A stretch of 64,000 nt of DNA from a virus. A program made the translations under genes and the position numbers. Of the stretch, positions 3,294-63,939 are shown in pieces. The first letter of the stretch is position 1. Each line of letters begins with the position of its first letter. The DNA is taken from IMG/VR virus record IMGVR_UViG_3300024981_000003. One strand, given 5' to 3'. A model generated the notes under the pieces. It did not search any database. It was not told the origin of the DNA and saw nothing but the letters and a program-made list of their open reading frames with translations.

Positions 3294-3392
3294 TGTACGT
3301 CTGATACAGTGGAAAATACTCTTGAAACCCAAACAAATAAGCCCTCAGTTCGTCCACACGGGTCACTCGGCGTCCCTGCCGAGCGCAGATCA

Positions 3393-3416
3393 GTGTGGGA
3401 ACCGGTGTGGGAACCG
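3393..3416 (+). repeat. Tandem 12-mer pair GTGTGGGAACCG GTGTGGGAACCG (candidate integrase arm-type sites, right arm)
   Basis: Perfect tandem duplication 23 nt upstream of the int start. About 200 bp from the related pair at 3182-3205. Confidence 0.5.
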
Positions 3417-3438
3417 GAAGAACTCAGTCGAGGGAACG

Positions 3439-6306: not shown

Positions 6307-6485
6307 TCGTCATCGACATCTGGGGCGGCGAAGAAAGCCAGGATCACGTCGCGCGCTTTCTGCGGCCTGTCGACGAAGCGTTAGAGATTTCCCGCCGCGA
6401 ACTCGCGGCCGGATTTCTCGTCAATCTCCGTGGCGAGATTGCGTGGGGTCAAGAATGCGAATTCGACGAGCGCCCCGTGCATTGA
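6303..6485 (+). CDS. Small acidic hypothetical protein (60 aa)
   Basis: ATGA overlap with the ATPase stop. Sits between the ATPase and rtcB. Confidence 0.45.
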   Translation: MIVIDIWGGEESQDHVARFLRPVDEALEISRRELAAGFLVNLRGEIAWGQECEFDERPVH

Positions 6486-6496
6486 AGGAACGAATA

Positions 6497-10277: not shown

Positions 10278-10720
10278 CGAAACCTCAACGCATCCAATTG
10301 AAGCGCACCAAGGGCTGGAAGATGCCGCCCAACACCGTGAAAGTCGATCGCTCGACGAGGTGGGGCAACCCTTGGCGCATTGGCGCCAACATGAGCGATG
10401 ACGACGCTCCTGGCGGAGACATCAACGGTAACGGCGAAGTGCAACCAAAAGGTTGGCGCACATGCAGGACCGCCGCAGATTGCGTGCAGGCATTTCGCAA
10501 CAGTGTCGATTGGGACCCGGACGCGCCGTGGGGTATCGGCAATCTAGTTTGCCAAGGCGGCTTTGGTCCAGAACACAAGAACCGCAAGACGATCCGAGCC
10601 GAACTTCGCGGCAAGAACCTCGCCTGCTGGTGCAAGCTCGGAGAGCCGTGCCACGCCGACGTTCTTCTTGAAATCGCCAACGCTGATGAAGCGCCCTCTA
10701 CAGAAAAGGGGCGGGGATGA
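10274..10720 (+). CDS. DUF4326-like protein
   Basis: Strings VDRSTRWGNPW and LACWCKLGEPCHADVL are typical of DUF4326. ATGA-coupled start. Confidence 0.6.
   Translation: MTKPQRIQLKRTKGWKMPPNTVKVDRSTRWGNPWRIGANMSDDDAPGGDINGNGEVQPKGWRTCRTAADCVQAFRNSVDWDPDAPWGIGNLVCQGGFGPEHKNRKTIRAELRGKNLACWCKLGEPCHADVLLEIANADEAPSTEKGRG
10691..10720 (+). repeat. Junction element J2, copy b
   Basis: GCGCCCTCTACAGAAAAGGGGCGGGGATGA. Confidence 0.7.
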
Positions 10721-11469
10721 AAGATCGCAGGACCGTGTGCTGGTTTAGCGCGGGCGCGGCATCGGCCGTAGCGACGAAGCTGACGCTCGCCAGCAATCCA
10801 GATGCCGTTGTCGCCTATTGCGAGACGGGCTCGGAGCATCCCGACAACGAGCGGTTTATTGCCGATTGCGAACGCTGGTTCGGGAAGCCGGTCGAACGCC
10901 TGAAATCAGACCGCTACGTCGATACGTGGGATGTTTTTGAGAAGCGCCGCTATCTCGCTGGCAACGACGGCGCGCCCTGCACGGTCGAACTCAAGGTTAT
11001 GCCGCGCCTCGCATGGCAGCAGCTAACCGACGAGCATGTCTTTGGGTACACAGCGGACGGCGCTGACAGCAAGCGGGCCGACCGGCTACGACACAACTAT
11101 TTTGAGTTGACGATCAAGACGCCGCTCATCGAGAGGGGGCTGGATAAAGCGGCGTGCCTTGCATTGGTTCAAGGTGCCGGGATTAGGCTTCCGATTATGT
11201 ACAGACTTGGGTTCGGCAATAATAATTGCATCCCCTGCGTTAAGGCCACATCTCCGGATTATTGGGCGCTCGTTCGGAAGGTGTTTCCGTCCGCATTTTG
11301 GCGCATGGCAAAACTCTCGCGCGAACTTGGCGTTCGTCTCACGCGCATCAACGGCGAACGCATCTTCATTGACGAGATACCGGACGATTGGCCCACCGCC
11401 GATCCCATTCAGCCCGCCTGCGACTTCCTTTGCCACATCGCAGAGCAAGACCTTGAGGCTGCCGAATGA
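10717..11469 (+). CDS. PAPS-reductase-like (PP-loop ATPase superfamily) protein
   Basis: N-terminal VCWFSAGAASAV (variant PP-loop) and the overall pattern of phage PAPS-reductase-family proteins. ATGA-coupled start. Confidence 0.6.
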   Translation: MKDRRTVCWFSAGAASAVATKLTLASNPDAVVAYCETGSEHPDNERFIADCERWFGKPVERLKSDRYVDTWDVFEKRRYLAGNDGAPCTVELKVMPRLAWQQLTDEHVFGYTADGADSKRADRLRHNYFELTIKTPLIERGLDKAACLALVQGAGIRLPIMYRLGFGNNNCIPCVKATSPDYWALVRKVFPSAFWRMAKLSRELGVRLTRINGERIFIDEIPDDWPTADPIQPACDFLCHIAEQDLEAAE

Positions 11470-11484: not shown

Positions 11485-11516
11485 GCGCCCCCTCTACAGA
11501 AAAGGGGCGGGGATGA
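11485..11516 (+). repeat. Junction element J2, copy c (intergenic)
   Basis: GCGCCCCCTCTACAGAAAAGGGGCGGGGATGA. The upstream gene already ends at 11469. Confidence 0.7.
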
Positions 11517-11845
11517 GCGATAGACCCCTATGCTCAATAGAGCGTGATGACCGGAATTTCTGGCACATCAACGTCTACTACGCTGCCGATTGGAGCGAAG
11601 TACCGGAAGGCACACCGCCAGACGCGTTCGCGACAACCGAGGACGGGGCATCCGTAGATGATGCTATCGAACTGGCGCGCAGCAAGTTTCAGCCCTCTAC
11701 GATCTGCGTTTGGGACACCTGCATCGATTGTAGTGGCGTTGGCGAAGACGCCGAAGGGTTTACGTGCTGCGAGTGCAATGGCGAAGGTATTAGTTGCGAG
11801 GACATCGGCGACGGAGCCCCCTCTACTAATGGAGCGGTGAAGTGA
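11513..11845 (+). CDS. Cys-rich hypothetical protein (DnaJ-like CxxCxGxG zinc ribbon)
   Basis: String CIDCSGVGEDAEGFTCCECNGEG. Preceded by the junction element that contains the SD. Confidence 0.55.
   Translation: MSDRPLCSIERDDRNFWHINVYYAADWSEVPEGTPPDAFATTEDGASVDDAIELARSKFQPSTICVWDTCIDCSGVGEDAEGFTCCECNGEGISCEDIGDGAPSTNGAVK
11814..11845 (+). repeat. Junction element J2, copy d (5' half only)
   Basis: GAGCCCCCTCTACTAATGGAGCGGTGAAGTGA. Shares GCCCCCTCTAC and the stop/start overlap. Confidence 0.45.
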
Positions 11846-18602: not shown

Positions 18603-19796
18603 TCAGCCCTCCTTCACGAGCGACACCGAGCCGTCGACGTAGTAGTTGCCCGATCCGATATCGTTGACCTCCGTGTCGCCAAACGCGGAAGCCTGACCCG
18701 ATACGACGTAGGCTTGCAGTTCGACGACGGATGGCACACTCAGCGAAAACCACACCGACCCGACGGATGGTGCCGAGGACGCGTCCGATGCGTACGCGTC
18801 GACCGTCGTGCCCAATCCAAGCGGCGCGCCCGCCGAGACATTGTAGAGCCGCGCCCGCGTGTTCTTGGTTTTTGCGATCGCTCCAAGAAATGAGCCCCGG
18901 TACGTGCCTTTCGGCAAAATAATTTGATTTGAGCCGTTCAGGCTCGCGCCCGTGACCTGATTGATCACGATGTCGGATAGCGGCCGGCGGAACCAAGCAT
19001 TGAATGTCGTCACTGGCCGCTTGACGAGGTTGGGACGCCGCTCTTCAACCTTGAACGCCGCGCCGATCTTCGGAAGCGAAAGGTTGCCGCTCGACAGCGC
19101 AGCAACGATCGTCGCCAAGAGCTGCGCTTCCGTTACGTTGCGATGCGCATTTGATTGCACGCTAAAAAACGGAAAAAGATCACTGCCCGCTGGCGTCGCA
19201 GCGGAGAGCAAGTTGTAGGCGAGATTGGCGCGATAAACGTCGTCGATGTCGACGCCTTCGCCATCCAGCGGCACAGCCGACGGCGTTTGCGCCGCATAGG
19301 GAATAGCCCAAGGCGCGAGACGAAACGCGCCGCTGCCTCCGTCCAGCGCTTCATCGTAGACGGCAAAAACCAACCGCTCTGCCGTGATGTCTCCCGCGCC
19401 TATCAAACTGCCATCGGGCCGCAGGATCTTCTTGCTGCCAAGCCCGAACGCGTTGACGATCGAAGCGTCCGTCGACGAATGCGCCGGATAGAAGAAAACG
19501 CAGAGCCCCGTGAAGTAGGACTTCGGAGCCTGAAAAGCGTTGGTGAGCTTCAGAATATAGACGTTCGCGTTGCCGGCATCCTGACAGTACACGGCCGCCG
19601 ACGCATAGCGCGCCATTGCCTGCGCCAGCATACGCACATCGGAATCTGTTGGTGCGTTGTACGCATCCGGCGTGATGCCTGCAGTTATCACTGCATTGAC
19701 CATCTCCGCAAAGCGCCAATCGTCCTCAACGGCTTTCAGCGTACCTTCCGCGGTTCCGACACCGGCACCGTCGACTTTCGTGATGTACCTGCGCAT
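18603..19796 (-). CDS. Putative distal tail / receptor-binding protein, paralog 3 of 3
   Basis: Colinear similarity over its whole length to 19803-21002 and 21005-22207 (MLAQAMARY, YFTGL, EERRPN, YYVDG..S..KE). Confidence 0.6.
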   Translation of the reverse strand: MRRYITKVDGAGVGTAEGTLKAVEDDWRFAEMVNAVITAGITPDAYNAPTDSDVRMLAQAMARYASAAVYCQDAGNANVYILKLTNAFQAPKSYFTGLCVFFYPAHSSTDASIVNAFGLGSKKILRPDGSLIGAGDITAERLVFAVYDEALDGGSGAFRLAPWAIPYAAQTPSAVPLDGEGVDIDDVYRANLAYNLLSAATPAGSDLFPFFSVQSNAHRNVTEAQLLATIVAALSSGNLSLPKIGAAFKVEERRPNLVKRPVTTFNAWFRRPLSDIVINQVTGASLNGSNQIILPKGTYRGSFLGAIAKTKNTRARLYNVSAGAPLGLGTTVDAYASDASSAPSVGSVWFSLSVPSVVELQAYVVSGQASAFGDTEVNDIGSGNYYVDGSVSLVKEG

Positions 19797-19802
19797 CGCG
19801 AA

Positions 19803-21002
19803 TTAAGCCTCTTTGATGATGCTGATCCAGCCGTCGACATGATACGCGCCGGGGTCATTGACGCTGATGTCGGAAAGACGCCAGTCTCCGAACGATGTCG
19901 CGCCGCCCTCAAACAACCAGCTCTGAACCTCGATGGTGCTCGAGGATCCGGCCGGAATCTGAAACCACGTATTCCCAAGGGACGGTGTCGATGGCGAGTT
20001 CGTGTCGGACACATAGCTGTCTGACGCCGACCCGTTACCGAGCACCACCTGACGCGTCATGTCGACGAGCCGCGACCGATGATTGCCGCTTTGCGAGCAA
20101 ACGGCGGCCCATTCCGCGCGATAAGTCCCGGACGGCAGGCTGATCTGGTTGCCGACGAGTGCCGCGCCTGGTACCTGATTGACGACGACGTTCGAAAGTG
20201 GCCGCCTCAGCCACGTCCGGGTTGCGGCGGCGCGCCTGGTGCCGTTGGGCCGGCGCTCCTCGATTTTCAGGATTGGCGCAACCGTGATCAGCGAAACGCT
20301 CGTCAGGCCCGCTTGAATGATTGCGATCAATTCGGCCAGCGTCAGTTCGTAATGATGGCCCTTTGTCTGCGAATAGAACGAGAAGATATCCGTAAGCGCC
20401 GGAATTGCCGTGACCAATCCGGGAACGTTCAACGCGACGTGATAGGTTCCGTCGACGACTATGCCTTCACCTGAAACCGGGACCGCGGTGGGCGAAAGGA
20501 TTGAAGGCGGAACGGCCCACGGCGTGAGGCGGAATCCGCCCACCCCGCCGTCCAACTCTTCGTCATAAAATGCATCAACCAACCGGTTGGCGAAGATGTC
20601 GCCGGTCTTGATCGCGCTTCCGTCAGGTCGATAAAGAGATTTCGCGCCGAGCCCGTGTGCGTCGATGACAGACGGACCGTTTGAGGCATGCACGGGATAG
20701 AAGAGGACGCGAAGTCCCGTGAAATACGCCTTCGGCGACTGAATCTGCCCCGCGTTGCGCAAGATGTAGGAGTTTGCCGACTGTCCCGTGTCGATGCAGT
20801 ACACCGCCGCCGACACATACCGCGCCATCGCCTGCGCCAGCATTTTCAAATCGGTGTCGTCCGCATCGGGATCGTCGAGCGCGATTCCGGCCGTTGAGAC
20901 GGCTGCGGTCAATTCGCCAAAACGGACGTTGTCCTCTTCGGCATATAGAAATCCCGACGGCGCAGGTCGGCTGTTGTCGATCTTCGGCACGTAATCGCGC
21001 AT
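19803..21002 (-). CDS. Putative distal tail / receptor-binding protein, paralog 2 of 3
   Basis: See paralog 3. Lies tandem to it, 6 nt apart. Confidence 0.6.
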   Translation of the reverse strand: MRDYVPKIDNSRPAPSGFLYAEEDNVRFGELTAAVSTAGIALDDPDADDTDLKMLAQAMARYVSAAVYCIDTGQSANSYILRNAGQIQSPKAYFTGLRVLFYPVHASNGPSVIDAHGLGAKSLYRPDGSAIKTGDIFANRLVDAFYDEELDGGVGGFRLTPWAVPPSILSPTAVPVSGEGIVVDGTYHVALNVPGLVTAIPALTDIFSFYSQTKGHHYELTLAELIAIIQAGLTSVSLITVAPILKIEERRPNGTRRAAATRTWLRRPLSNVVVNQVPGAALVGNQISLPSGTYRAEWAAVCSQSGNHRSRLVDMTRQVVLGNGSASDSYVSDTNSPSTPSLGNTWFQIPAGSSSTIEVQSWLFEGGATSFGDWRLSDISVNDPGAYHVDGWISIIKEA

Positions 21003-21004
21003 CG

Positions 21005-22207
21005 TCAGCTTTCCTTCACAATCGATAGCCAGCCGTCGACGTAGTAGTTGCCCGATCCGATATCGTTGACCTCGGCATCGCCGAGGTAAGGATCATCGAC
21101 ACCTTGATCATTGGCCCAATATTGCAACTGAATGACGTGGGGCGGCCCGGCCGGAATCTGAAACCACGTCGTGCCGAGCGAAGGTGTTGACGGTGAATCC
21201 TTCTTCCCCGAGAAGCTATCCGACGCCGAGCCCGAGCCGATCATCTTCTGCGCCGTGACGTCGAAGAGCCGCGAGCGATGATTGCCGCACTTGGCAATGA
21301 CGCTGACCCAATCAGACCGGTATGTTCCGGGCGGGAGAGAGACCTGATTTCCGGAGAACGCGGAATTGGCGATTTGGTTGATGATGACATCCGAGAGCGG
21401 CCGCGCGGCCCACGCGTTATGGACGGCCTTGCGTTTCGTTAGGTTAGGCCGGCGTTCTTCGATCTGCATCGTCGGCGCGACCTGTGAGTACGAGATCGAC
21501 GGCACCGTCGCTTGCACGAGCGCAATCAGCGCTGAGAGCGAGATGATGCGATGGTGCAGGCCCGCATTCGAATAAAATGGGAATACGTCCGCCGAGACGG
21601 GCAGGCCGTGCGCCAAGCTCGGAAAGTTGAGAGAGATCTGATAGAGGTTGTCGACGGAGATGCCTTCGCCGGACGATGGAACGATGCTCGGCGCCAGGAC
21701 GGCCGCAGGTATTGCCCACGGGACAAGCCGAAACGCACCCGCGCCTCCATCGAGTGTCTCGTCGAAGAATGCATCGACGAGACGATTGGCGGCAATGTCG
21801 CCGTTACGAACCGCGCTACCATCCGGGCGAAACAATTTCTTCGAACCCAGCGAGAACGCGTTGATCGTCGAGGCGCCCGTCCCGGACGTGACGGGGTAGA
21901 AAACGACGCGCAAGCCAGTGAAGTACATTTTCGGCGGTTGAACAGCGCCGAGCGCTTTCAGGACGTAAGCGTTCGTGCCTCCGGAATCGAGACAGAATAC
22001 GGCCGACGAGGAATAGCGTGCGAAGGCCTGCGCCAGCATCTGGCGATCTTCGACATAGCCCTCCGGTGGATTGATCGGATCGGGCGTAATTCCCGCCGTG
22101 ACAACGGCATTTTTGAGTTCGGCAAACCGCGTGTTGTCTTCAAGTGCAGACAGAATGCCGGAAGGCGCCGGCGCTGTGCCGTCGACCTTGGTGACGAAAG
22201 TGCGCAT
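21005..22207 (-). CDS. Putative distal tail / receptor-binding protein, paralog 1 of 3
   Basis: See paralog 3. Lies tandem to paralog 2, 2 nt apart. Confidence 0.6.
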   Translation of the reverse strand: MRTFVTKVDGTAPAPSGILSALEDNTRFAELKNAVVTAGITPDPINPPEGYVEDRQMLAQAFARYSSSAVFCLDSGGTNAYVLKALGAVQPPKMYFTGLRVVFYPVTSGTGASTINAFSLGSKKLFRPDGSAVRNGDIAANRLVDAFFDETLDGGAGAFRLVPWAIPAAVLAPSIVPSSGEGISVDNLYQISLNFPSLAHGLPVSADVFPFYSNAGLHHRIISLSALIALVQATVPSISYSQVAPTMQIEERRPNLTKRKAVHNAWAARPLSDVIINQIANSAFSGNQVSLPPGTYRSDWVSVIAKCGNHRSRLFDVTAQKMIGSGSASDSFSGKKDSPSTPSLGTTWFQIPAGPPHVIQLQYWANDQGVDDPYLGDAEVNDIGSGNYYVDGWLSIVKES

Positions 22208-30339: not shown

Positions 30340-31545
30340 TCAGTCCACGCCGATCAGGATGTTGACGGCGCCGTCGAACAAGGCCGGGTTTATGCCGGCA
30401 TTGAGATCGACGAGCGTGTCGGTGCGATCGTCTGCGTCGTAAAGCATGTAGGCCAGCACGGAGGCCGGAAATTGTGGAACGTCGAGCCAACCGATATTGG
30501 GAAGCTGCAGCTCTTCCTGCCGAAGCACGTCCATCGCGGCCGCCACGATCTTCGCGATGGCCGCCGCCGTGTCGGACGGTAGTGTTTCGGTCGGGATCGC
30601 TTCGTAGAGCGCCAGCAGTTGACGCTCCGCGCTCGCAACGCCATCGACCGTCGTGTACGTCGTGCCGGCCATCGCTTCAGCCATCGACGACAAGCACGCG
30701 AGTTGTATGAACGTGGCGTAGGTATAGAGCGACCGAGACCGCACTTGATAATCAAGCGTCGCCGTAAGACCCGTCGTCGGAATGGCGGCGGCCACGGCGT
30801 GCATCTGCGTTGCCTGGCTCGCAGCCTGCGCCATGCCATTGACGATATCCTGGCCTGTATAGGTGGCCGAGATATCTTCGAACGGGCCGCGGAAAAGTGC
30901 CGTCAGTTCGTTGGAAAGCATCGGAGCGCTGGTCGCATAGCGCTCGGGCGCGGAGATCAGATGTCCGGCCGCCGTCTGCACCGCTTCCACAGATCCGAAT
31001 GCAGTCACGAACGTCTCGGCCACGGCCGTCACTTGCTTGGCCATGAAGGTCTCGGTCACGGCCGACATTGCCGGCGTGCCGTAGGCGTTCTGAAACAGCG
31101 TGAAGAGCTCGCCGACGAACTGAGCCGAGAGCCCCGTGACCAATGCGGCAATGGCCGACGTCCTGCCGGGAAACACGGCAGGACCGGTGACGAGAAAGCA
31201 GACTTCGAGTTCGAGAACGCCGGTTTCGCGATCTTCGCGCTTGACCCTCCAAGGCCCTTTGACCGCGCAAAACTGCGTGCCATACCACGGATGATGCAGA
31301 GTGCCCGGACCCGGTCGATTGAGGGCCGAGCGCAGCGCGCTGAAATCGGACAGCACCGAATTCCCGTGCAGCACGCACGTCATTTTGAATTCGGGCGGGA
31401 TATAACCGTTATCCTCGGCGTACCGGAGCGAGGAATCCGGATAGCGGTGGTCGATCGTATTGCGGCCCTCTTCCGCGGTATCGTGCGGACAGAGAAAGCG
31501 CGCACCCCGGAATGATGCCGGGCGCAGATCGCGGAGCATCACCAT
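30340..31545 (-). CDS. Mu gp43/N-like DNA circulation protein
   Basis: N-terminal SFRGARF...EEGRNTIDHRYPDS motif of the DNA-circulation N-terminal domain. GAGG SD. Confidence 0.75.
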   Translation of the reverse strand: MVMLRDLRPASFRGARFLCPHDTAEEGRNTIDHRYPDSSLRYAEDNGYIPPEFKMTCVLHGNSVLSDFSALRSALNRPGPGTLHHPWYGTQFCAVKGPWRVKREDRETGVLELEVCFLVTGPAVFPGRTSAIAALVTGLSAQFVGELFTLFQNAYGTPAMSAVTETFMAKQVTAVAETFVTAFGSVEAVQTAAGHLISAPERYATSAPMLSNELTALFRGPFEDISATYTGQDIVNGMAQAASQATQMHAVAAAIPTTGLTATLDYQVRSRSLYTYATFIQLACLSSMAEAMAGTTYTTVDGVASAERQLLALYEAIPTETLPSDTAAAIAKIVAAAMDVLRQEELQLPNIGWLDVPQFPASVLAYMLYDADDRTDTLVDLNAGINPALFDGAVNILIGVD

Positions 31546-31555: not shown

Positions 31556-31594
31556 CAAAAAGCAAAACGCCCGGAAGCGGTATGCTGCCGGGCG
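31556..31594 (-). terminator. Intrinsic terminator 5 nt downstream (minus sense) of 95-bp repeat copy 1
   Basis: Minus strand reads CGCCCGG-N13-CCGGGCG followed by UUUUGCUUUUU. The SD and ATG 31545 follow. Confidence 0.7.
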
Positions 31595-31599
31595 CGAAG

Positions 31600-31694
31600 A
31601 GCGACGATAGAAATTACGATGCCAGTGACCCCGATTTGTCGCAAGGGGGCTGCAATGTTTTTTTATTGTTCGCCATGCGGCGGAGTGTCGCAGT
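31600..31694 (-). repeat. 95-bp perfect direct repeat, copy 1 (non-coding element)
   Basis: Matches 60574-60668 at 95 of 95 positions. Flanks are unrelated. Confidence 0.95.
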
Positions 31695-31759
31695 AAATTG
31701 TCTTTACGCGTGTGGTGCGAGCCCCAAGATCAACGCTACGACTGACGCGGGAGACGACG

Positions 31760-32020
31760 ATGGAAATTGGTGTCGGAACATTGCTCTTGGGGCTGGCGGG
31801 CATCGGCGGATTGGCCTATCTCGCCATTTTGGCCATATCATTTCAAGCTCCGCCGAAGCGGCCGCGCATGATGTCGATGCGCGACGCTCCGCACGTCAAG
31901 CCGCGCGAAGGCTATGTCGATGGCGTCGTCCGCCGATGGTCGATGATGATGGGGTGCTTGGTGCTTGCGGCCATTATCGCCATTCCGCTCCTCACCATCT
32001 TCGTACCCACCGGCCGCTGA
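31760..32020 (+). CDS. Small two-TM membrane protein encoded antisense to the tail operon (moron candidate)
   Basis: ATG at 31760 with a GGGAGA SD. TM segments IGVGTLLLGLAGIGGLAYLAILAI and MMMGCLVLAAIIAIPLLTIFV. The only plus-strand gene within 47 kb of minus-strand genes. Confidence 0.5.
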   Translation: MEIGVGTLLLGLAGIGGLAYLAILAISFQAPPKRPRMMSMRDAPHVKPREGYVDGVVRRWSMMMGCLVLAAIIAIPLLTIFVPTGR

Positions 32021-34354
32021 TCACTTCGAAACGCGTGGCGCCGCCGGTTCAGCCATGCTTTGACCACGAGGTGCCGATGCCGCAAGCGGCATCTCACCGT
32101 TGACGTTGGCTGTGAGGCCATTGAGGCCACTGAGCGTGCCCTTCAAGGTCACCGACGCGGGCACTTTCAATTCGATCGGATCGATCGTCGAGCGGACCTG
32201 CACGTCGGCCTGAATCCTTTGGGCGGCCGCATTTCTGCCCGCTGCTGCCGCATCGGCCGCAGACGCACCGCCGCCACGCGGGCCGAAGCCGTGGAACGTC
32301 GGCGACGGTTTCGGATGATACTTTGCTTTCAATGCTTCGGCTTCCGCGATCAGATCCTGGGCGTGCCGCATCCGCTCCTGCGTCGCCAGATACGAACGCC
32401 CTTCGATCCCGATGACATCGATGCCATGATGCCTCCGGCGCGCGTTGAAACGCATGTTATCGAGCTGCGCCGAATGGCGGTCGCCGAAGCCCGCCGCTTG
32501 CGTGATGGCCTCGGCGTTTGCGCGCGCGCCGGTCTTGTTTCCAGCCGCGATGTTTTTCATCAGCGCCCAGACTTCGGACAGAACTTTCTTCACCTGATCC
32601 CAATGCTGGTAGATCTCATAACCGAGAAAGATCAGCGCTCCGGTTCCGCTGATGAGGCTGAGGGCCCGCAAAGCTCCGACTGAAGCCCAAATGCCGGCCG
32701 CCGCTCCGCCAATACCTCTCAATGCCGCCGAAATGCCGGTAATGCGGGCCAAACCCGCGATCATGGGTCCAAGCGCACTCAATGCAAGCAAAGGCATCGC
32801 TGCAACCGACAACATATTTAGAGCAGCCGCCGTCCAGCCAGCGGCTTCGAGGAGCCATGGATGCGCGTCGGTACTCGTCGTGCCATGGCCGCGTGAACCG
32901 TGCACCACCGTTTTGCCGGTAATCGCATCCATGAGTTCACCAAACTTCGATGCCAGCTGCCCGACGTGCTCGCCAAACCCGGACTCACCGACAGAGACCT
33001 TCAACCGTTCCCATGCCGTCGCGAACCTTTTCAGACCAGCTGCTCCGCCTTTGGAACCTTCGAGGCCCATCATCTCCGCTAGACCATCGACGTTTTTCAA
33101 ATCTTCGATCATGGCACGCAGTTCGTTTTTGTTCGTGCCGTCGAACGCAGCCGCGATGGCTTGCGCGACTTTCTGTCCGCGGTCCCCAAACATCTTGTTG
33201 AATGCGGCGGCCCGTTGCGCTGGACTAAGTTTTGCCGCCGCCTTACCTACGACGTCGGCAAACTCTTCCGGCCCGAGCACCTTGCCATCCTTATCGGTCA
33301 GGTCGGATTTATGAAGGCCCAGAGCCTTCCAGAACGTGGCACCTTCCTTGGTCCAGTTGAGGGTCTTCGTGATCATGCGCGAGAGGCCCGATCCAGCGAA
33401 CTGGCCCATACCCCGCTTGGCGAGAAAGCCGACGGCGCCGACCGTCTGTTCCTCGGTCCATCCGGCCGCGTGGGCGACGGCCGAAATCTGACCCATTTGC
33501 GACGTGATCTGGCCCATGGTGATGCCCGTCTTCTGGTGGATGCGGGCGATCGTGTCCGAGATGTGCGGGAACTTCTCGGCAAATTCTTCCGGCTTCATGC
33601 CGAAGCCTTGCGCGATCATCAAATGTGTCTTGAACGTCTCGGCCGGATCCTCGCCGGTCGCCGTCGCGATACCGAGCATCTGTCTTGCAACGACCGACCC
33701 CAAAAGCTCGCCTGACTTGGTGCGAGCACCAATCGGAACCCCGCGCTCGGCTTCGGCCATCATCACTTTGGCAATCTCGGACGGTCCGAAAATCGTTCCA
33801 CGCGCAGTGTCCATTGCGCTCTTTCTCAGCGCCGCCAGTTGCACGTCATCGATCTGCCCCGCCATGGTGCCGCGGATCTTGCGGAACTCATCGTCAAAAT
33901 CTGCCCACGTCTTCGTGACGTCGTTGTGCAGCATTGAGAGCGCAAACAATCCGCCCATGAATCCGACGCCGGAGCCCTTCTCTTTCGGGCCCGGGATTGC
34001 GCCGGACTTGATCAGGTTTTGCCGCGCCACGTGGCGCTCGTACATCCCCTGCTCCATCTTCTCGATGCGGTTCATCGACTTGATCTGCAGTTCGGTGAAC
34101 CGCGCCGATTCCTGCGCGGCGCGGGAGTTGGCCTTCGTGAACGCACCAACGCCCTGCGCCGCCTTCTCGGCGCCGGCGGCGACGCGGTTCATCCCCGCCG
34201 CCGCTTTCGCCATCTGACCGTCGATCTCGGTCGCCGCCTTTCCCATGTTGCCGATCGACGTCTTGGCATCGGCTGCCGCTTTCGCAACACGCTCCGCAGC
34301 AGCGGAAAACGCGTCACGCAACGCGATAATGTACTCAACCGTAAATCCGGCCAT
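32021..34354 (-). CDS. Tail tape measure protein
   Basis: 777 aa. Lies directly downstream of the chaperone and frameshift genes. Helical N-terminus, Gly/Ala-rich hydrophobic central segments. Confidence 0.9.
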   Translation of the reverse strand: MAGFTVEYIIALRDAFSAAAERVAKAAADAKTSIGNMGKAATEIDGQMAKAAAGMNRVAAGAEKAAQGVGAFTKANSRAAQESARFTELQIKSMNRIEKMEQGMYERHVARQNLIKSGAIPGPKEKGSGVGFMGGLFALSMLHNDVTKTWADFDDEFRKIRGTMAGQIDDVQLAALRKSAMDTARGTIFGPSEIAKVMMAEAERGVPIGARTKSGELLGSVVARQMLGIATATGEDPAETFKTHLMIAQGFGMKPEEFAEKFPHISDTIARIHQKTGITMGQITSQMGQISAVAHAAGWTEEQTVGAVGFLAKRGMGQFAGSGLSRMITKTLNWTKEGATFWKALGLHKSDLTDKDGKVLGPEEFADVVGKAAAKLSPAQRAAAFNKMFGDRGQKVAQAIAAAFDGTNKNELRAMIEDLKNVDGLAEMMGLEGSKGGAAGLKRFATAWERLKVSVGESGFGEHVGQLASKFGELMDAITGKTVVHGSRGHGTTSTDAHPWLLEAAGWTAAALNMLSVAAMPLLALSALGPMIAGLARITGISAALRGIGGAAAGIWASVGALRALSLISGTGALIFLGYEIYQHWDQVKKVLSEVWALMKNIAAGNKTGARANAEAITQAAGFGDRHSAQLDNMRFNARRRHHGIDVIGIEGRSYLATQERMRHAQDLIAEAEALKAKYHPKPSPTFHGFGPRGGGASAADAAAAGRNAAAQRIQADVQVRSTIDPIELKVPASVTLKGTLSGLNGLTANVNGEMPLAASAPRGQSMAEPAAPRVSK

Positions 34355-35090: not shown

Positions 35091-35124
35091 GAAAATAAAA
35101 ACGGCGGCCCCCAGGACCGCCGTT
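35091..35124 (-). terminator. Intrinsic terminator after the tail tube gene
   Basis: Minus strand reads AACGGCGG-N9-CCGCCGUU followed by UUUAUUUUC. Confidence 0.75.
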
Positions 35125-35155
35125 CATTCGTGCTTGTTCGTCGCTCGGCTAAATT

Positions 35156-45915: not shown

Positions 45916-46079
45916 CAGCCGACCTTGATGATGACCCGTGGCGGATTGCGTCGGAAGCGCACGCACATCGCAACAGCCTCGTCGACTGCGGCACGGTAGT
46001 CGTGCATCCCGGTTTTGACGAGGTATTCGGCGCAGCGCCGCTCAATGTCGATGTCGGCCACGAGCGTGTGCGTTTTCAT
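45915..46079 (-). CDS. Small hypothetical protein (54 aa)
   Basis: Hand-translated MKTHTLVADIDIERRCAEYLVKTG... TGATG overlaps at both ends fill the gap exactly. Confidence 0.4.
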   Translation of the reverse strand: MKTHTLVADIDIERRCAEYLVKTGMHDYRAAVDEAVAMCVRFRRNPPRVIIKVG

Positions 46080-49000
46080 CAGCGCAGATCCGCACGCGTG
46101 AAGCCGCTGAACGTCCGGCCCTTCGCCGCTTGCGCGGCCGCCTGGACAGTCGGATTGGCCCAGCCTCGGCGTGCTCCGCTCGTTCCCGACGCTGGCGCGT
46201 CCGACGAGTCCTTCGCCGGGGCACGGTATGCAGTATTCGCCGCGTTAAACGCGTCGTGCACGGCGACACCGGTATTCACGGCCATGCCGGGAAGCGACAT
46301 ATCCCACGCGCCCTTGGCGGCCGCCTTGATGATGCCGGTCGCGCCTTCGCCGTGGCGATAGGCGGCGATGCCTTCCGACACGGCGCCGAAGCCCATGAGA
46401 GCGACAGACGTCGCCGGGATCGCCTTGGCCGCCGTCATACCGGCGCGCATCAGGCCGCCCGTGACTGCAGCGGTGCCGACGGTGAAGCCTGCAAGCGTTA
46501 CGCCGCCTTTAACGCCTTCCTTAGCCGCTTCCTTGATCTGGCTGCCGGCATCGCGGCCTTCGGCCTTCGCCTTCGACGATGCCACGATCATTGCGGCGCC
46601 GATCGCGATCGGCGCAAGCACGCCCGCGACCTTACGGACACCGCGCTTGGCGGGTTTCGCAGCGATTTTATCGGCAGCCGGAGCGCGTTCAGGCTTCGGC
46701 GCGTTCATCTTGGCGCGCATGCGATCGGCGACACCGTTCGATGGTTTGGTGAGCGCCTCGGTGCGCAGTTCCGCATCGCCCTTCTGACTGTCGCCGGCAC
46801 GCATGCGGTTGAGATAACGACGCTCGCGATCCGCGCGGACTTGGTCTCCAATGGACGCCCATTTCTTAGCATCCTCATGCCGCTGCATTTCGGTCTCGCT
46901 GAGCATTCCGTGTTTTGCCTTCACGTCTTGCGTCAGTGTTTTGAGAGTTGCCTCGGCGGCATCGCCACGCGGCGTTCCCGGCGTCGTGGTCTGCGACTCC
47001 TTAATCGCATTTTGCAGCCGCGCCACATCGGCCATGCGAGCGTGCGCTTCGAGGCGATCGATATCGACTTGGTTCCGCTTGACGAGATCAAGTCCGATGG
47101 CCACGCGCTGCTTCGAGGCTCCGGGCGACGTACCCTTGAGCGCTTTGGCGATCTCTGCGTGCGCGCGCGCCGTCTGATTGCGGGCCTCAATCACCTTGAT
47201 CGGATCGGGAAGGTTCGATGCCTTCGCCGGCGCTTTCGCCCTTGATTTGCGGTTGGTGTTGATCGCCTCCAGGTTCGCGGCGTTCTGCGTTCCGCGCTTT
47301 CCCGACGTCACCTTATCGATTGCGGCGCTGACGTCCTTCATGATGCGGTCGCGACCTTCCTGAAACTTGCCCGGAAGGCCCGCCTCTTCGGCCGACGTCA
47401 ACGCACGAAACGCGCCGACGGTCTGTGCCTTTCGCACCATCGACCGGCCCGTCGTATAGGCCCGCTGCTCGATGGCTTTGATCATCGCCGCTTTCGAGGT
47501 CCGCGCGGCGGCCTTCGAACCGACGACCTGCTCGTGAACAGCCTGGATCTCTTGTTTCGAAAGACCCGCGAGGCGCTTCATGGGATCACTAGGCGCAACG
47601 CTTTCACTCGCGACCTGGCGCACGATGTTGGCGAACGGTTTGCGTGGCGCTGAGATGCGCTTCACTTCATCGTCGACGCGGCGAACGCGATCAACAATGT
47701 CCGTCTGCTGCCGGGATGAAGAGAATAGCCCGTGGTCGGCTGCATCGCCGGTCCGGCCCTTGGCCGCCTTCTTGCGCGATTCCGCTGCGATCTTATCTTT
47801 CGTCGTCGCCTTCGGCATCATGTCGCCCTGGCCATCGTCGATTGACATGCGGACTTTGCCGGCGGTGCTTTCAACTTTGCGATGCATGTAGCGCGACGCC
47901 CCATAAGCGTTGTCGCGACGATCGACTGAACGGATCGCCGACTTGAGCGTCTTCGCCGTGCCGACGACCTTCTTCGTCTGACGATCAACGATCTCGTAGG
48001 CAGCTCCCGATTTGGGCTGTTTCATGTCGTCGCCTTTCGCATTTGCCTTGCGGGCGTTTGCACTCGCGGCACGCGCTTTATCGTCCCAGACGTGATGCTC
48101 GCCAGCCGCCTTCGGCTCGATCGAGAACATCGACGTCTGGTTCTGATTGACCATCTGATGCATCTCGGGCGCATCGCCCGTGAGCGCCCGCATGCCGCCG
48201 GATTTCAGCGCATCGCCGACAGCCTTGACGAACGAGCGCGCTGCGACTTGCGGCTTCTTGCCTTCCGCCATCTGGAGGGCCGCCGTCTCGAGCATGCTGG
48301 AAACCGGCCCGCGGTTCTTTGCGAGCCGTTCTACCAGAGCGGCTGTGGTCCCCGCCTCCGAGGCGCGCGCCGCGTTCGTTTCGTGACTGAGGCGGTTACC
48401 CGCCTCCTCGATAGTGTGAGACTCACGATCGAGCAGCGCAAAAATTCGCTTGTCCGACTTGAGCGATCCGAGAGCCTTGTCGAGAACAGCGGCGCGTTCG
48501 GCGATGAGTGAACGCGTCTTCGTTTCCTCACCGAACAGCGAATTCTGTGATTCATGGATCGAACCGGCACTAAGTGCTTGATCGACATAAAGTCCGGCGT
48601 GCTGCGCCGAAGTGATATTGGCTTTGGCCATTTCGGCAAGCATATCGGCATGGCGTGTGGTTTCTCCAATGCGGGCGCCGACCTGTGCGGCGTACTCCGG
48701 CTTGATGACCCCGCCGACAACCATGTCGAAGGCCGGCTTCGAGAGCTTCGCAAGGTTAGCCGCTTCGCGGACTTTCGCGTCCGACATCGGCACGGAACCG
48801 TTGACGAGGTCCGGCCGCTCGCGCATCACCTTCGCCATATCGAGCGCTTGGCCCGACGATTCCTTGATGTTCTTCAAAGCCGCGTACGCGTAGACATCGC
48901 GCGGCGACCAGCCATCGCGCTCGCGCAGCACGTAGGCGTCCATGTTGATCTTCTGACCTTCGGACGCGAGCCGCTTGGCGAGACCGAGGCGCTGATGACC

Positions 49001-50095
49001 GTCCGCGATGACGAGGTCGCCGTTGGCGCGCTCGAAGACGACGGCCTTGCCCGCCGCTACGTTATCCCACGACTTCACGCCTTTGAGGCGATCGGTAACG
49101 CCGTGGTTGTCGCCGCCCGACTTGAATTGGAACGTCGACGGATCGGACGTGATCTGGCGCGGATCGAGTTTGCGGAATCGGGCGGGCTTGTTGTCCGCCA
49201 TGTCCTTGTTGAAGAGCTGCTGGAAGGCGTTCGAGGCGGCGTCCTTGACGCCTTGGAAGTCGATAAAACTACGATCAAACTTTCCGGCCTCGACGTTCTT
49301 CGCAAGGATGTGATTGTCTATCGGGTCATCGAACCCGATCGGCTCTTGCAGGCCGGGAATGTGCTCGGACGGCAATCGGCCACGTCTCATGGCAGCCGTG
49401 TGGCCGTATTGACGGCCGGTCAGTCGCGCTTCCTGCTCGCCGGCGAGAAGCTTATATTTCTCGATGCGCTTATCGCGACCTGAATCGCCGGGATAGAATT
49501 TCTCAAAATCCTTGGGCGAACCGCCAAGATCGAACTTTTCCCGTTCCGCAACCGAGTGCTGAACTTCGTGCAACACATGCTCCATGGCCTCATGGGCCAA
49601 ATCGCCGTGAGCGTCGAACGCTCTCGGCGACAATTTGATGGTCTCGCCATCAAATGACGAGCCCTCTGCATTGGCGGGAGCGCGCCCGACTTGCAGCGAC
49701 TTCAAGGTCGGCATCGCCTGATAGAGTTTCGGATGGTTGAGGACGTTAGCGAGATCCGTCGTGCCGGAACGTGGGACGGCGCTTTTGTTCAGCGTCGCGG
49801 TGTTATCCGTCAATTCAAACCGCGGTTGGTTATCTTTCGCAAAAGTGATGCCAGCGTATGGCGAGCCGCGCAGTTTCTTATTGCTCGCCCGATAAACGCC
49901 AACGCGCGAACGATCACCATTGTCCATAGCCTGCTGCGCAGCATCGAATGCTTGCGACGGGCGATCGTCGCCTGCTTTGGAAAGTGAATCGGCAGCCTTG
50001 AGCCCAAGAAACATCGCGCCGACGGGAGCGGCGGGCGCAAAAGAAGAGGCCGGGGATTTGTCATCCCCGGCCTTGCGACGGTCGTCTTTTGCCAT
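46079..50095 (-). CDS. Polyvalent virion protein (1338 aa): HExxH zincin-like motif, ParB-like nuclease domain, C-terminal glycine-zipper membrane segments
   Basis: LHEVQH at aa 175-180. ParB/Srx-type VVFERANGDLVIADGHQRLGLAKRL at aa about 350-375. Located between the portal and MuF genes. Confidence 0.7.
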   Translation of the reverse strand: MAKDDRRKAGDDKSPASSFAPAAPVGAMFLGLKAADSLSKAGDDRPSQAFDAAQQAMDNGDRSRVGVYRASNKKLRGSPYAGITFAKDNQPRFELTDNTATLNKSAVPRSGTTDLANVLNHPKLYQAMPTLKSLQVGRAPANAEGSSFDGETIKLSPRAFDAHGDLAHEAMEHVLHEVQHSVAEREKFDLGGSPKDFEKFYPGDSGRDKRIEKYKLLAGEQEARLTGRQYGHTAAMRRGRLPSEHIPGLQEPIGFDDPIDNHILAKNVEAGKFDRSFIDFQGVKDAASNAFQQLFNKDMADNKPARFRKLDPRQITSDPSTFQFKSGGDNHGVTDRLKGVKSWDNVAAGKAVVFERANGDLVIADGHQRLGLAKRLASEGQKINMDAYVLRERDGWSPRDVYAYAALKNIKESSGQALDMAKVMRERPDLVNGSVPMSDAKVREAANLAKLSKPAFDMVVGGVIKPEYAAQVGARIGETTRHADMLAEMAKANITSAQHAGLYVDQALSAGSIHESQNSLFGEETKTRSLIAERAAVLDKALGSLKSDKRIFALLDRESHTIEEAGNRLSHETNAARASEAGTTAALVERLAKNRGPVSSMLETAALQMAEGKKPQVAARSFVKAVGDALKSGGMRALTGDAPEMHQMVNQNQTSMFSIEPKAAGEHHVWDDKARAASANARKANAKGDDMKQPKSGAAYEIVDRQTKKVVGTAKTLKSAIRSVDRRDNAYGASRYMHRKVESTAGKVRMSIDDGQGDMMPKATTKDKIAAESRKKAAKGRTGDAADHGLFSSSRQQTDIVDRVRRVDDEVKRISAPRKPFANIVRQVASESVAPSDPMKRLAGLSKQEIQAVHEQVVGSKAAARTSKAAMIKAIEQRAYTTGRSMVRKAQTVGAFRALTSAEEAGLPGKFQEGRDRIMKDVSAAIDKVTSGKRGTQNAANLEAINTNRKSRAKAPAKASNLPDPIKVIEARNQTARAHAEIAKALKGTSPGASKQRVAIGLDLVKRNQVDIDRLEAHARMADVARLQNAIKESQTTTPGTPRGDAAEATLKTLTQDVKAKHGMLSETEMQRHEDAKKWASIGDQVRADRERRYLNRMRAGDSQKGDAELRTEALTKPSNGVADRMRAKMNAPKPERAPAADKIAAKPAKRGVRKVAGVLAPIAIGAAMIVASSKAKAEGRDAGSQIKEAAKEGVKGGVTLAGFTVGTAAVTGGLMRAGMTAAKAIPATSVALMGFGAVSEGIAAYRHGEGATGIIKAAAKGAWDMSLPGMAVNTGVAVHDAFNAANTAYRAPAKDSSDAPASGTSGARRGWANPTVQAAAQAAKGRTFSGFTRADLR

Positions 50096-59667: not shown

Positions 59668-59888
59668 CAGTGCACCCTCTGCATTTCGAAGGCTGAAAGA
59701 TCGACCGCCGACCAATAATTGCAGTCGCGCCATTTAACGATGGCGACGCAGGCGTGCTCTTGATCGTCCGTCTCTTCGCCGTCGGAATCGACGTACGACG
59801 TGATGTCGCCGAGTGCGCCGTCTTCGGCACTCACAAGGCCGCTTGCACGGTTGACGGCCTGCACCACCCGTGTTTGCGGGCCGCTCAT
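59667..59888 (-). CDS. Hypothetical acidic protein (73 aa)
   Basis: Track ORF. ATGA-coupled to the wHTH regulator gene. Confidence 0.5.
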   Translation of the reverse strand: MSGPQTRVVQAVNRASGLVSAEDGALGDITSYVDSDGEETDDQEHACVAIVKWRDCNYWSAVDLSAFEMQRVH

Positions 59889-60259
59889 GCGCAGATCCCA
59901 TAGCGCTCTTCGACTTCGCGGCAGGCGTCCCGCTCGATCTGGTCGATGAACGGATTGGGCGACGCGCTGAACCGATGGTGGCGAGAGATTTCATCCGCCA
60001 GGAGTTCGCGCATGAGTTCGATATGGGCCTGCGCCACGTTCCAGCCGCGGTTCCAGACGGTGTGGATTGCAACACCATGCGCCGCGAGCGCACGGCGCAA
60101 TCTATGCACGACGATGTCCAGCACCTCTTTCGGCGCTTCCGGGCCGCCGTCGGCGCGGTTGCTATAGAGCGCCTCGATCAGCTCGTCATGCGAGACGGTC
60201 CGCCCCTCGAGCAGACGCCATGCGATGACGCGCTCGGTTGGAGTGAGCTTGCGCAGCAT
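59885..60259 (-). CDS. Stand-alone OmpR/PhoB-type winged-helix DNA-binding protein (no receiver domain)
   Basis: LTPTERVIAWRLLE..VSHDELIEALY.......VLDIVVHRLRRAL...IHTVWNRGW matches the Trans_reg_C pattern. Confidence 0.6.
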   Translation of the reverse strand: MLRKLTPTERVIAWRLLEGRTVSHDELIEALYSNRADGGPEAPKEVLDIVVHRLRRALAAHGVAIHTVWNRGWNVAQAHIELMRELLADEISRHHRFSASPNPFIDQIERDACREVEERYGICA

Positions 60260-60417
60260 CAGCGTTTCCGGATGGCTTGAGTGACGGTCGGAGCCTTGAT
60301 CGAGCGCACGATCTGGGCCGTGCCCTTTTTGGCGATCGTCGCCGCAGTGCCGATCTGGCCTCTGCGAATGGCCTGGACGAGCTCCGAACGCATCTGTCCG
60401 CAGGTCGAGCAGGCCAT
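60259..60417 (-). CDS. Small basic protein (52 aa), first gene after the copy-2 terminator
   Basis: ATG at 60417 (MACSTCGQMRSEL...) with a GGAGA SD. TGATG-type coupling to the wHTH gene. Confidence 0.4.
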   Translation of the reverse strand: MACSTCGQMRSELVQAIRRGQIGTAATIAKKGTAQIVRSIKAPTVTQAIRKR

Positions 60418-60491: not shown

Positions 60492-60527
60492 GGGGCTGTT
60501 GCCAGTGATGTGGCGAGGCGCCAGACA

Positions 60528-60560
60528 GCAAAAAACCCGGCGCGGATGTCCGGCCGGGTT
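60528..60560 (-). terminator. Intrinsic terminator 13 nt downstream (minus sense) of 95-bp repeat copy 2
   Basis: Minus strand reads AACCCGGC-N11-GCCGGGUU followed by UUUUUGC. Confidence 0.7.
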
Positions 60561-60573
60561 CACGTGCGCAGTA

Positions 60574-60668
60574 AGCGACGATAGAAATTACGATGCCAGT
60601 GACCCCGATTTGTCGCAAGGGGGCTGCAATGTTTTTTTATTGTTCGCCATGCGGCGGAGTGTCGCAGT
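60574..60668 (-). repeat. 95-bp perfect direct repeat, copy 2 (non-coding element)
   Basis: Matches 31600-31694 at 95 of 95 positions. Abuts the stop of gene 60671-60895. Confidence 0.95.
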
Positions 60669-62608: not shown

Positions 62609-62724
62609 TCGTATACGAAAATAGACTACAAGATACGTTCATTCACGAAAATGTGAACAAATAACCTACGCGGATTCCCTTGACATGGGAACCGCGGCAT
62701 TGACTTTCGGTTATTTTCGTATAC
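62609..62724. promoter_or_regulatory. Operator-like repeats in the divergent switch region
   Basis: GTATACGAAAAT at 62611-62622 and its reverse complement at 62713-62724. 10-bp palindrome TCGTATACGA at 62609-62618. TTCAC-GAAAAT-GTGAA at 62642-62657. The half-site ACGAAAAT occurs three times. Confidence 0.55.
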
Positions 62725-63405: not shown

Positions 63406-63939
63406 ATGAAGCCCCTAAAGCGCCGACCAGCTGGCCGCCAACGCGCTGCAAAGCCGGATCCAACTGCAGAGAAGTCGACAACGGCTGAAACACCCTCCCA
63501 ATCCGAAACGATCGCGGCGACTTCGCCGGTCGGGCGCGCGGCCTTTACGATTGATGAAACGGTCGTCATGACCGGCGTTGGCCGGGATTTGATTTACGAG
63601 GCGATCAAGGACGGACGCCTCGTCGCGCGCAAGCTGGGACGCCGGACGATCATTCCAGCCGATGCACTCGAAAACTTTATCTCGCACCTTCCCCGTGTGG
63701 GAGTTGGAAGCAAGGAGAAAGCGAAGTCGGAAGACTTCAAATCCCTGATCGAACGCGAAGCCCATTCGGCAGCCGACCTGCTCGCCGCGCTCGAAGCCGC
63801 CAAGGCCTCGGGCATCGACCTTGCAACCGTGAACGTACATTTGGGGGGTGGATATCTGGGATCCGTCGACGTAACCCAGCGCACGCATGCGGATGGATCG
63901 AAAACCACCTACATGACGCTTTGGATCACACCCTGCTGA
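63406..63939 (+). CDS. HTH_17/excisionase-family DNA-binding protein with C-terminal domain of unknown function
   Basis: FTIDETVVMTGVGRDLIYEAIKDGRLVARKLGRRTIIPADAL. GGAGA SD before ATG 63406. Confidence 0.6.
   Translation: MKPLKRRPAGRQRAAKPDPTAEKSTTAETPSQSETIAATSPVGRAAFTIDETVVMTGVGRDLIYEAIKDGRLVARKLGRRTIIPADALENFISHLPRVGVGSKEKAKSEDFKSLIEREAHSAADLLAALEAAKASGIDLATVNVHLGGGYLGSVDVTQRTHADGSKTTYMTLWITPC

Follow-up and report, generated by a model that had tools for sequence, protein, structure and literature searches.

Q-type antitermination, a textbook switch, was until recently known mainly from lambdoid phages, and has lately been described for AlpA in Pseudomonas and for BrrG and GafZ in alphaproteobacterial gene transfer agents (GTAs). 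Every Q protein depends on a −10-like sequence among the first transcribed bases and on a binding element within the late promoter. In lambda, the −10-like AACGAT at +1 to +6 gives rise to a sigma-70-dependent pause at +16. The AlpA-binding element (ABE) of Pseudomonas aeruginosa lies between the −35 and the −10, with CACGAT at −1 to +5 and then an intrinsic terminator. In the Bartonella GTA (BaGTA), BrrG requires a NANNNT located 5 bp downstream of the −10 in order to act, and the GafZ-binding element (ZBE) of Caulobacter lies between the −10 and the −35. Here, we analysed a 95-bp element that occurs twice in a 64,000-nucleotide stretch of viral DNA (IMG/VR record IMGVR_UViG_3300024981_000003; this whole stretch is hereafter called the window). 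Each copy heads a block of late genes and is directly followed by a terminator. Because the layout of this cassette matches the cis-requirements described for Q, AlpA, BrrG, and GafZ, we read it, with moderate confidence, as a Q-type late promoter with a terminated leader, through which the late genes would be controlled at the level of DNA and RNA polymerase.

Layout and conservation of the cassette

A previous reading of this DNA, made from the sequence only, had reported a perfect 95-bp direct repeat with unrelated flanks, and both observations were confirmed. The copy at 31600-31694 recurs at 60574-60668, 28,974 bp away and in direct orientation, with 95/95 positions matching, and the identity breaks off at both ends, with 6 of the next 11 bases matching on the terminator side. 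Only two copies of the element are present within the window, and a 35-nt degenerate pattern derived from it gave 2 matches versus 0 in 100 shuffles. The sequence-only reading had also placed a GC-rich hairpin and T-run after each copy and had described these terminators as lacking homology with one another; this was likewise found. The features of the two copies and of the late terminators are given below.

60574-60668, minus strand: cassette copy 2 (c2), the 95-bp element ahead of the late regulatory, packaging, and head genes.
31600-31694, minus strand: cassette copy 1 (c1), the 95-bp element ahead of the DNA-circulation, baseplate, and tail-fibre genes.
60650-60666, unstranded: block A dyad of c2, TGCG-N9-CGCA, TGCGACACTCCGCCGCA, about 75 bp upstream of the putative start.
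31676-31692, unstranded: block A dyad of c1, with the same sequence as in c2.
60613-60618 (c2) and 31639-31644 (c1), minus strand: putative −35, TTGCGA, with an invariant TTG placed 17 bp from hexamer a in 12/12 cassettes.
60599-60610 (c2) and 31625-31636 (c1), minus strand: spacer motif AATCGGGGTCAC, between the −35 and the −10.
60590-60595 (c2) and 31616-31621 (c1), minus strand: hexamer a, CATCGT, the putative −10, with A2 in 12/12 and T6 in 8/12 cassettes.
60578-60583 (c2) and 31604-31609 (c1), minus strand: hexamer c, TATCGT, −10-like, 6 bp after hexamer a and at about +1 to +6.
31604-31644, minus strand: core of c1, from the −35 through hexamer c, with the same elements as c2.
60523-60560, minus strand: terminator t_c2, AACCCGGCCGG-ACAT-CCGCGCCGGGTT (...CCGGGTT) and the T-run TTTTTTGCTGTCT, about −20 kcal/mol.
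31556-31595, minus strand: terminator t_c1, GCGCCCGG-CAGCATACCGCTT-CCGGGCG and the T-run TTTTGCTTTTT, about −18 kcal/mol.
35099-35125, minus strand: strong internal late terminator, GAACGGCGGTCC-TGG-GGGCCGCCGTTT and TTATTTTC, in a 94-nt gap after the tail-tube gene.

On the minus strand, an early promoter region lies near 62630-62660 ahead of the early-left genes, and seven small genes run from 62597 down to 60671, upstream of c2. After c2 and its terminator come the gene of a 52-amino-acid (aa) CxxC protein, a 124-aa Trans_reg_C gene, more small genes, terS, terL, portal, and the head genes. The gene map therefore agrees with the earlier placement of this copy between seven small early-left genes and the regulator and terminase genes. 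Further along the strand, the sheath and tube genes, the terminator at 35099-35125, chaperone-like genes, and the tape-measure gene (34354-32021) were found. The surroundings of c1 are this tape-measure gene (32021-34354), an 86-aa membrane-protein gene on the opposite strand (31760-32020, plus strand), and the DNA-circulation gene DNA_circ_N (30340-31545), beyond which baseplate and fibre genes extend down to about 17.5 kb.

Contigs of related phages, numbered with the prefix L, were fetched using homologues of the DNA-circulation protein (88, 72, 61, 53, and 48% identity, and one of 64% over the N-terminal 166 residues) and homologues of the regulator (66, 57, and 53% identity). The element and a terminator stand upstream of the DNA-circulation gene in all fetched DNA-circulation relatives (L005, L006/7, L008, L012-14, L015-17, and L101, the c1 orthologues). 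The c2 orthologues stand upstream of the gene pair encoding the 52-aa protein and a winged helix-turn-helix (wHTH) protein in L009, L010, and L018, that is, in 3/3 regulator relatives that keep this pair. A third cassette, which the window phage does not have, was found at positions 61-190 of L008 (the 61% relative), before the tape-measure gene; it carries a perfect block A palindrome and TTGCGT-17-TAGTCA-6-TATCTT, followed by a terminator. The element was found only at syntenic sites in related phage contigs.

All 12 cassettes share one geometry, TTGNNN-17-NANNNN-6-NANNNT, then 35-43 nt with a hairpin, and then a T-run. This geometry holds in L015, L018, and L101 despite their poor alignability, and these diverged cassettes were recognised by geometry rather than by alignment (an nhmmer profile, which uses sequence alone, gave E=0.33 for L015 and did not detect L018). 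Hexamer c reads NANNNT in 12/12 cassettes, as TATCGT in eight and as TATCTT, TACAGT, CACGAT, and TATCCT in one each, and is a putative sigma-dependent pause element. The variants of hexamer a are TAGTTT, TAGCTT, TACCTT, CATTGT, TATATC, TATGTA, TATCTG, TACACA, and TAGTCA. In the spacer, AATC.G.GTC.C is invariant in the six closest sequences, and L015, L101, and the third copy of L008 have a second spacer type, ..GCCGCGACGCGCG, as opposed to the AATCCGGGTCAC type. By analogy, the spacer motif is a candidate binding element for a read-through factor, at the position taken by the Q-binding element (QBE), the ABE, and the ZBE.

The arms of block A are invariant in seven sequences and its centre is variable. 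In the third copy of L008, block A is the perfect palindrome GTGCGGCAG-T-CTGCCGCAC, with 9-bp arms and a 1-nt centre, and in L101 it reads TGCGAC-N5-GTCGCA. Because the dyad becomes a perfect palindrome in these two contigs, block A was read as a DNA site and not as an RNA hairpin, and its symmetry makes it a candidate binding site, at the DNA level, for a dimeric protein or regulator. The ~25 nt that follow block A, at the centre of the element, are freely variable. The heptamer TGCGACA, reported to occur twice in the element, does so in this phage, and its second occurrence is not conserved in relatives.

In each of the 12 cassettes, a hairpin of −17 to −23 kcal/mol with a T-run forms an intrinsic terminator that separates the putative promoter from the late genes. 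Base changes in the t_c2 orthologues of L009, L010, and L018 preserve the stem. Moreover, the element keeps its partner terminator in all relatives examined, in line with the earlier suggestion that this pairing is functionally maintained. In the eight tail-gene cassettes (seven before DNA_circ and the third copy of L008), only 10-24 nt lie between the end of the T-run and the start codon; in the window, t_c1 ends 11 nt from the ATG of DNA_circ_N (31545). Because this gap leaves no room for a promoter, transcription of the tail genes needs read-through of the terminator. In addition, one identical element serves the two unrelated terminators t_c1 and t_c2, so the action of the element is independent of pairing with the terminator sequence. 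The internal terminator at 35099-35125 lies about 30 nt before the next late gene and has no cassette upstream. The short tail-gene gaps, the one element with two terminators, and the internal terminator without a cassette together suggest that read-through is a necessity.

Three of the features on which Q-type control depends, the promoter hexamers, the −10-like element, and the leader terminator, are present at the sequence level in 12/12 cassettes. Among the three hypotheses offered in the sequence-only reading, the one of a late promoter with a short terminated leader fits the comparative geometry in all 12 and is the best supported. From the observed repeat, conservation pattern, terminators, and synteny, we infer promoter activity, a start site, a pause, factor-dependent read-through, and the identity of a factor as follows. 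In the late direction, the order would be a dyad operator, the −35 TTGCGA, a 17-bp spacer with its motif, the −10 CATCGT, the TATCGT, and, about 36-42 nt beyond it, the T-run of the terminator. A polymerase starting at the cassette would pause at the −10-like TATCGT with sigma still held and, without a phage factor, would terminate after about 50-60 nt. A factor at the promoter, bound to the spacer motif and/or block A, would be loaded at the paused complex and would yield a terminator-resistant polymerase, which would pass its own terminator and further terminators within the ~45-kb late array. Copy 2 would turn on the regulator, terminase, and head genes, and copy 1 would reload polymerase for the baseplate and tail-fibre genes.

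Compared with the lambda PR'-qut-tR'/Q system (also Q21 and Q82), the cassette appears alike in its sigma-70-type promoter, in the NANNNT 6 bp after the −10, and in the conserved −35/−10 spacer where the QBE lies, as well as in its leader terminator, a very long late operon with internal terminators, and a site directly after the early genes. It differs from lambda in that no Q was recognisable in the window scans, in having two to three cassettes per genome instead of one, in the extra block A dyad, and in a host that is probably alphaproteobacterial. The terminator also lies ~40 nt after the pause element here and ~190 nt after it in lambda. With AlpA and PalpB-tB, a small-factor system whose binding element lies in the spacer, the cassette shares the position of its candidate binding element, a −10-like hexamer near +1 (CACGAT, which L015 carries itself), and a nearby terminator. 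However, AlpA is a small AlpA/excisionase-type helix-turn-helix (HTH) protein, and the two HTH_17 proteins of the window show no evidence of a link to the cassette.

The GTA systems BrrG/PbgtA-K and GafYZ/PgtaT come from a similar host clade (Hyphomicrobiales and Caulobacterales), and in both, phage-derived structural clusters stand under a promoter with a −10-like or spacer binding element and terminators. The GafYZ system consists of two proteins and has an activator site of its own further upstream, an arrangement to which block A and the spacer motif might correspond. In contrast to the neighbour found here, an OmpR/ToxR-type wHTH protein, BrrG resembles Q21 in its fold and GafZ carries a sigma-like HTH; furthermore, the BaGTA leader is long compared with the ~50 nt seen here, where the cassette is also multi-copy. 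The putL/putR sites of phage HK022 are similar in being present as two copies per genome, each upstream of terminators, but put is a conserved two-stem RNA that acts in cis without a protein, and no conserved fold was found here. The late promoters of phage Mu (Plys, PI, PP, and Pmom, with activator C) are comparable through the Mu-like tail module, and several late promoters are distributed over the morphogenetic genes of Mu, including one within the tail genes. Unlike the cassettes, Mu late promoters are not known to be followed by leader terminators and depend on C bound at −30 to −55, and no Mor/C homologue was detected here.

Relatedness and history of the two copies

Each copy type retains its own orthologous terminator across relatives, indicating that c1 and c2 are old paralogues. 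In two relatives in which c1 and c2 could be compared on contigs from the same sample, they are identical at 79/96 and 79/95 positions (~82%), no closer than orthologues between phages. The window carries the c2-type −10 region GGCATCGT at both sites, the c1-type being GGTAGTTT, which is consistent with gene conversion. Gene conversion is also favoured because the copies are only ~82% identical in relatives. The 95/95 identity is therefore probably a recent gene-conversion tract between old paralogues, bounded by the ends of homology, and is probably neither a functional requirement nor selected for.

In the more distant relatives L011, L023, and L102, the tape-measure gene abuts DNA_circ, with neither element nor terminator. 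Because these relatives lack both, element and terminator appear to have been gained and kept together. Of 80 DNA_circ loci in IMG/VR, none has a terminator upstream, and scans of IMG/VR with the single DNA_circ protein and with the regulator alignment found nothing. Neither repeat region gave a match by megablast against 50,697 phage records, among which the window as a whole has no close relative. An exact 25-mer from the element had 0 matches in IMG/VR viral contigs, and the invariant degenerate pattern had 0 matches in 185,579 species-representative genomes and in the Joint Genome Institute (JGI) metagenome set. The sequence-only reading had held that a generic host repeat, of the repetitive extragenic palindrome (REP) or miniature inverted-repeat transposable element (MITE) type, would speak against its proposal; since the element is absent from these 185,579 genomes, it is no host REP or MITE.

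A gene for a giant LPD1-domain protein (900 to >1,500 aa) follows DNA_circ in several relatives (L005 1724-4426, L006 2660-5660, L008 4203-7203, and L012 2730-4227). The window phage has a Mu gpP-like baseplate gene where its closest relatives carry the LPD1-domain gene, and this replacement indicates a module swap directly downstream of copy 1.

Candidate factors and alternative explanations

Proteins that might act on the cassette were searched for with Pfam on about 45 window proteins, with PHROGs on 20 proteins (late and early-left subsets), and against PDB sequences with single proteins and a concatenate of 23 small proteins; AlphaFold2 modelling and Foldseek were applied to the 124-aa protein only. 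The two genes directly behind c2 are as follows.

60259-60417, minus strand: 52-aa basic CxxC protein, the first gene behind t_c2.
59885-60259, minus strand: 124-aa OmpR/ToxR-type winged-helix protein, Pfam Trans_reg_C.

The model of the 124-aa protein has a mean predicted local distance difference test score (pLDDT) of 80 and consists of a winged helix and two C-terminal helices, and its best Foldseek matches are the DNA-binding domains of SaeR, ToxR, and PhoB. The pair of genes is always found with c2 (L009, L010, and L018), and the genes upstream of c2 vary. The two proteins are thus candidate trans-acting factors. Two HTH_17 (excisionase/AlpA-type) proteins are also encoded, at 2906-3253 and 63406-63939 (plus strand). 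The first adjoins the integrase and is probably an excisionase; for the second, a 177-aa protein among the early-right genes, no link to the cassette was found.

Several observations weigh against a Q-type late promoter. A strict sigma-70 consensus scan did not call the cassette promoter, CATCGT is a weak −10, and hexamer a is without T6 in 4/12 cassettes. In its place, the invariant hexamer c could serve as the genuine −10, within an activator-dependent promoter that has no −35. No Q, AlpA, sigma, or other antiterminator family was found with Pfam, PHROGs, or PDB sequence searches in the 64-kb window of the ~106-kb genome, and the sole conserved neighbour has the predicted fold of an OmpR/ToxR activator and not of Q. 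Finally, the relatives are few (about eight lineages) and related to each other, so that the counts of conserved cassettes do not represent independent events. A sigma-54 promoter at CTGGCATCGTAATTTCT was also considered and rejected, as its GG is not conserved in relatives (by eye).

The alternative that survives best, which we nevertheless consider unlikely, is an activator-dependent late promoter without processive antitermination. TATCGT would then be the true −10, block B and/or block A the activator site, and the hairpin a leaky attenuator or 5' stabiliser that sets a low basal level; the activator might be, for example, the 124-aa wHTH protein. Such a promoter would leave the fixed hexamer-6-hexamer spacing in 12/12 cassettes unexplained. 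With TATCGT as the −10, no −35 is found at 16-18 bp and the invariant TTG lies 29 bp upstream. Moreover, c1 transcription would start at the foot of the terminator hairpin, and a −18 kcal/mol terminator with a long T-run would still have to be passed for essential genes to be expressed. On the other side, hexamer c is the best-conserved −10-like hexamer, the product of the sole conserved partner gene has the predicted fold of an OmpR/ToxR-type activator, the window scans gave no Q-like protein, and the tail module resembles that of Mu, a phage that uses several activator-dependent late promoters.

The sequence-only reading had also proposed a duplicated small RNA (sRNA) gene, for which no positive support was obtained. 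Two paralogous sRNA genes would each yield a ~54-nt RNA, with a seed UAUCGUCGCU at its start, acting in trans on host or phage mRNAs. The promoter-like geometry, conserved 5' segment, and Rho-independent terminator are the minimal anatomy of an sRNA gene, and the seed is common to both copies, as the terminator is not. However, hexamer c varies as NANNNT (TACAGT, CACGAT, TATCCT, and TATCTT) and not as a contiguous seed, and the complement of the 14-nt seed, with ≤2 mismatches allowed, was found nowhere within the window besides the element itself. Pairing of the sRNA with the start region of the 86-aa mRNA, over 14 nt including one G-U, was rejected, since this match is not kept in L005 or L006. 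Rfam gave nothing at gathering scores, and a relaxed match of copy 2 to RcsR1 was spurious, with only ACAUUGC and the terminator aligned. In addition, the tail-gene terminators lie 10-24 nt before an essential operon without another promoter, so read-through would still be needed, and lambda also yields a short terminated PR' RNA as a by-product. We therefore regard a pair of sRNA genes as rather improbable.

An HK022 put-like RNA, transcribed from upstream promoters and acting in cis for protein-free antitermination, was another hypothesis of the sequence-only reading. Its appeal lies in the two copies per genome, each just before a terminator as with putL/putR, and in the two hairpins that had been drawn. 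These hairpins can be folded in this sequence and are not conserved in relatives. Across seven distinct sequences, 70.8% of the cells of the proposed helices are paired versus 69.7% after shuffling, with 146/500 shuffles equal, and changes are uncompensated in every helix (e.g. A82->T and GGCG->GUUC). Consistently, RNAalifold gave −4.7 kcal/mol and no consensus fold beyond the invariant block A dyad (TGCG/CGCA). The 25 nt in the middle of the element vary freely, and the fold z-scores of −1.5 to −2.0 are owed mainly to the terminators. The covariation expected of the two hairpins was therefore not found, which largely refutes a put-like RNA and makes it very improbable.

Finally, attL/attR sites of a 29-kb insert can be dismissed, together with a host REP or MITE repeat, as having next to no probability. 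In favour of att sites, direct repeats that match perfectly across 29 kb and lie in unrelated surroundings are the classic mark of integration, and an integrase is encoded. However, head and tail-shaft genes of this phage fill the interval between the copies and its baseplate and early genes lie on either side, the paralogous copies are syntenic in relatives and ~82% identical, the integrase gene (3322-4674) lies outside the interval and adjoins neither copy, and the pattern and 25-mer searches described above gave no match, so that synteny, gene map, and distribution rule out both.

Genomic context and implications

The sequence of the window is also contained in metagenomic contigs of 106,418 bp (JGI) and 106,432 bp (European Nucleotide Archive). 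Because these two contigs begin at different points of one sequence, they suggest a phage genome of ~106 kb that is circular or permuted. The phage was detected in dozens of metagenomic samples. It is probably temperate, since it encodes an integrase (3322-4674), whose gene adjoins neither copy of the repeat. Its contractile-tail module is Mu-like (DNA_circ_N, gpP, Gp46, and Gp48). The sole cellular genome with a relative of the DNA-circulation protein is a metagenome-assembled genome of Hyphomicrobium, and the host is for this reason probably a Hyphomicrobium-like alphaproteobacterium, as judged from protein similarity. No tRNA was found in the window, and no Rfam family reached its gathering score there.

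The gene next to c1 on the opposite strand lies outside the cassette and has the following extent.

31695-32020 including a promoter-like block, with the gene at 31760-32020, plus strand: 86-aa protein with two hydrophobic segments.

This gene has its own promoter-like CTTTAC-N17-CAAGAT just beyond the repeat, which is conserved in c1-type relatives only (by eye). The protein has no Pfam match, and the gene is present in relatives down to 53% identity, is absent from more distant ones, and looks like a moron. The element was also considered as an opposite-strand promoter for the 86-aa gene; this was rejected because the gene has its own CTTTAC-N17-CAAGAT and copy 2 has no opposite-strand gene.

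Several further features of the genome were observed. At the head of the early-left genes, just before the gene of a 69-aa ribbon-helix-helix-like regulator, 13-bp inverted copies at 62712-62724 (GTATACGAAAATA) and 62611-62623 (TATTTTCGTATAC) flank a promoter-like TTCACA-16-TATCTT (62630-62657); the inverted pair (62611-62724) is probably the operator pair of an early switch. Three tandem paralogues of 397, 399, and 400 aa occupy 18603-22207 (minus strand) at the distal end of the tail module, with DNA blocks 65-88% identical (repeat families D1, D3, D5, and D11), and may be alternative fibre or receptor-binding proteins. A 35-nt repeat, GCGCCCTCTACAGAAAAGGGGCGGGGATGA, is found at 10691-10725 and 11487-11521 (plus strand; 91% identical). 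In front of two successive early genes, it folds into a hairpin that runs up to the ribosome-binding site and start codon; a role in translational control is possible. In the head region, a 1,338-aa open reading frame (46079-50095, minus strand) follows the portal gene and an 84-aa gene, and its start may be miscalled, because its first 16 codons contain a terminator-like hairpin (50047-50073). Just past the right end of the window, a TROVE (Ro60-like) protein gene was found at L003 801-2180, and immediately upstream of it a sub-threshold match to YrlA (Y RNA-like) at L003 662-738 (34.6 bits and E=1.4e-4, the gathering score being 69). The window itself carries an RtcB RNA ligase gene at 6281-7849. 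Together, TROVE, the YrlA match, and RtcB resemble the bacterial rsr-Y RNA-rtcB RNA-repair set, here borne by a phage.

The class of switch to which the cassette appears to belong is already known. What is probably new is that it is multi-copy, has a very short leader and an extra dyad, comes with no recognisable Q, and belongs to an uncultured group of alphaproteobacterial phages. As a tentative and rather unlikely extension, the cassettes could be loading sites for an undescribed family of processive antiterminators, perhaps the 52-aa and 124-aa pair, which would be positively autoregulated and would act at two to three sites along the ~45-kb array. If so, a late array would have two or three loading sites versus the single site of lambdoid phages. 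The history of the two copies also indicates that a long perfect repeat in a phage genome need not mean a functional demand for identity, as gene conversion explains it best here. Should the Q-type interpretation be wrong, the cassette would still be a well-defined, conserved late-gene control element worth annotating. If it is true, the logic of promoter, −10-like pause, and terminator would be more widespread and more modular than thought, and a conserved cassette with a few co-conserved genes would provide a handle for finding a new antiterminator family.

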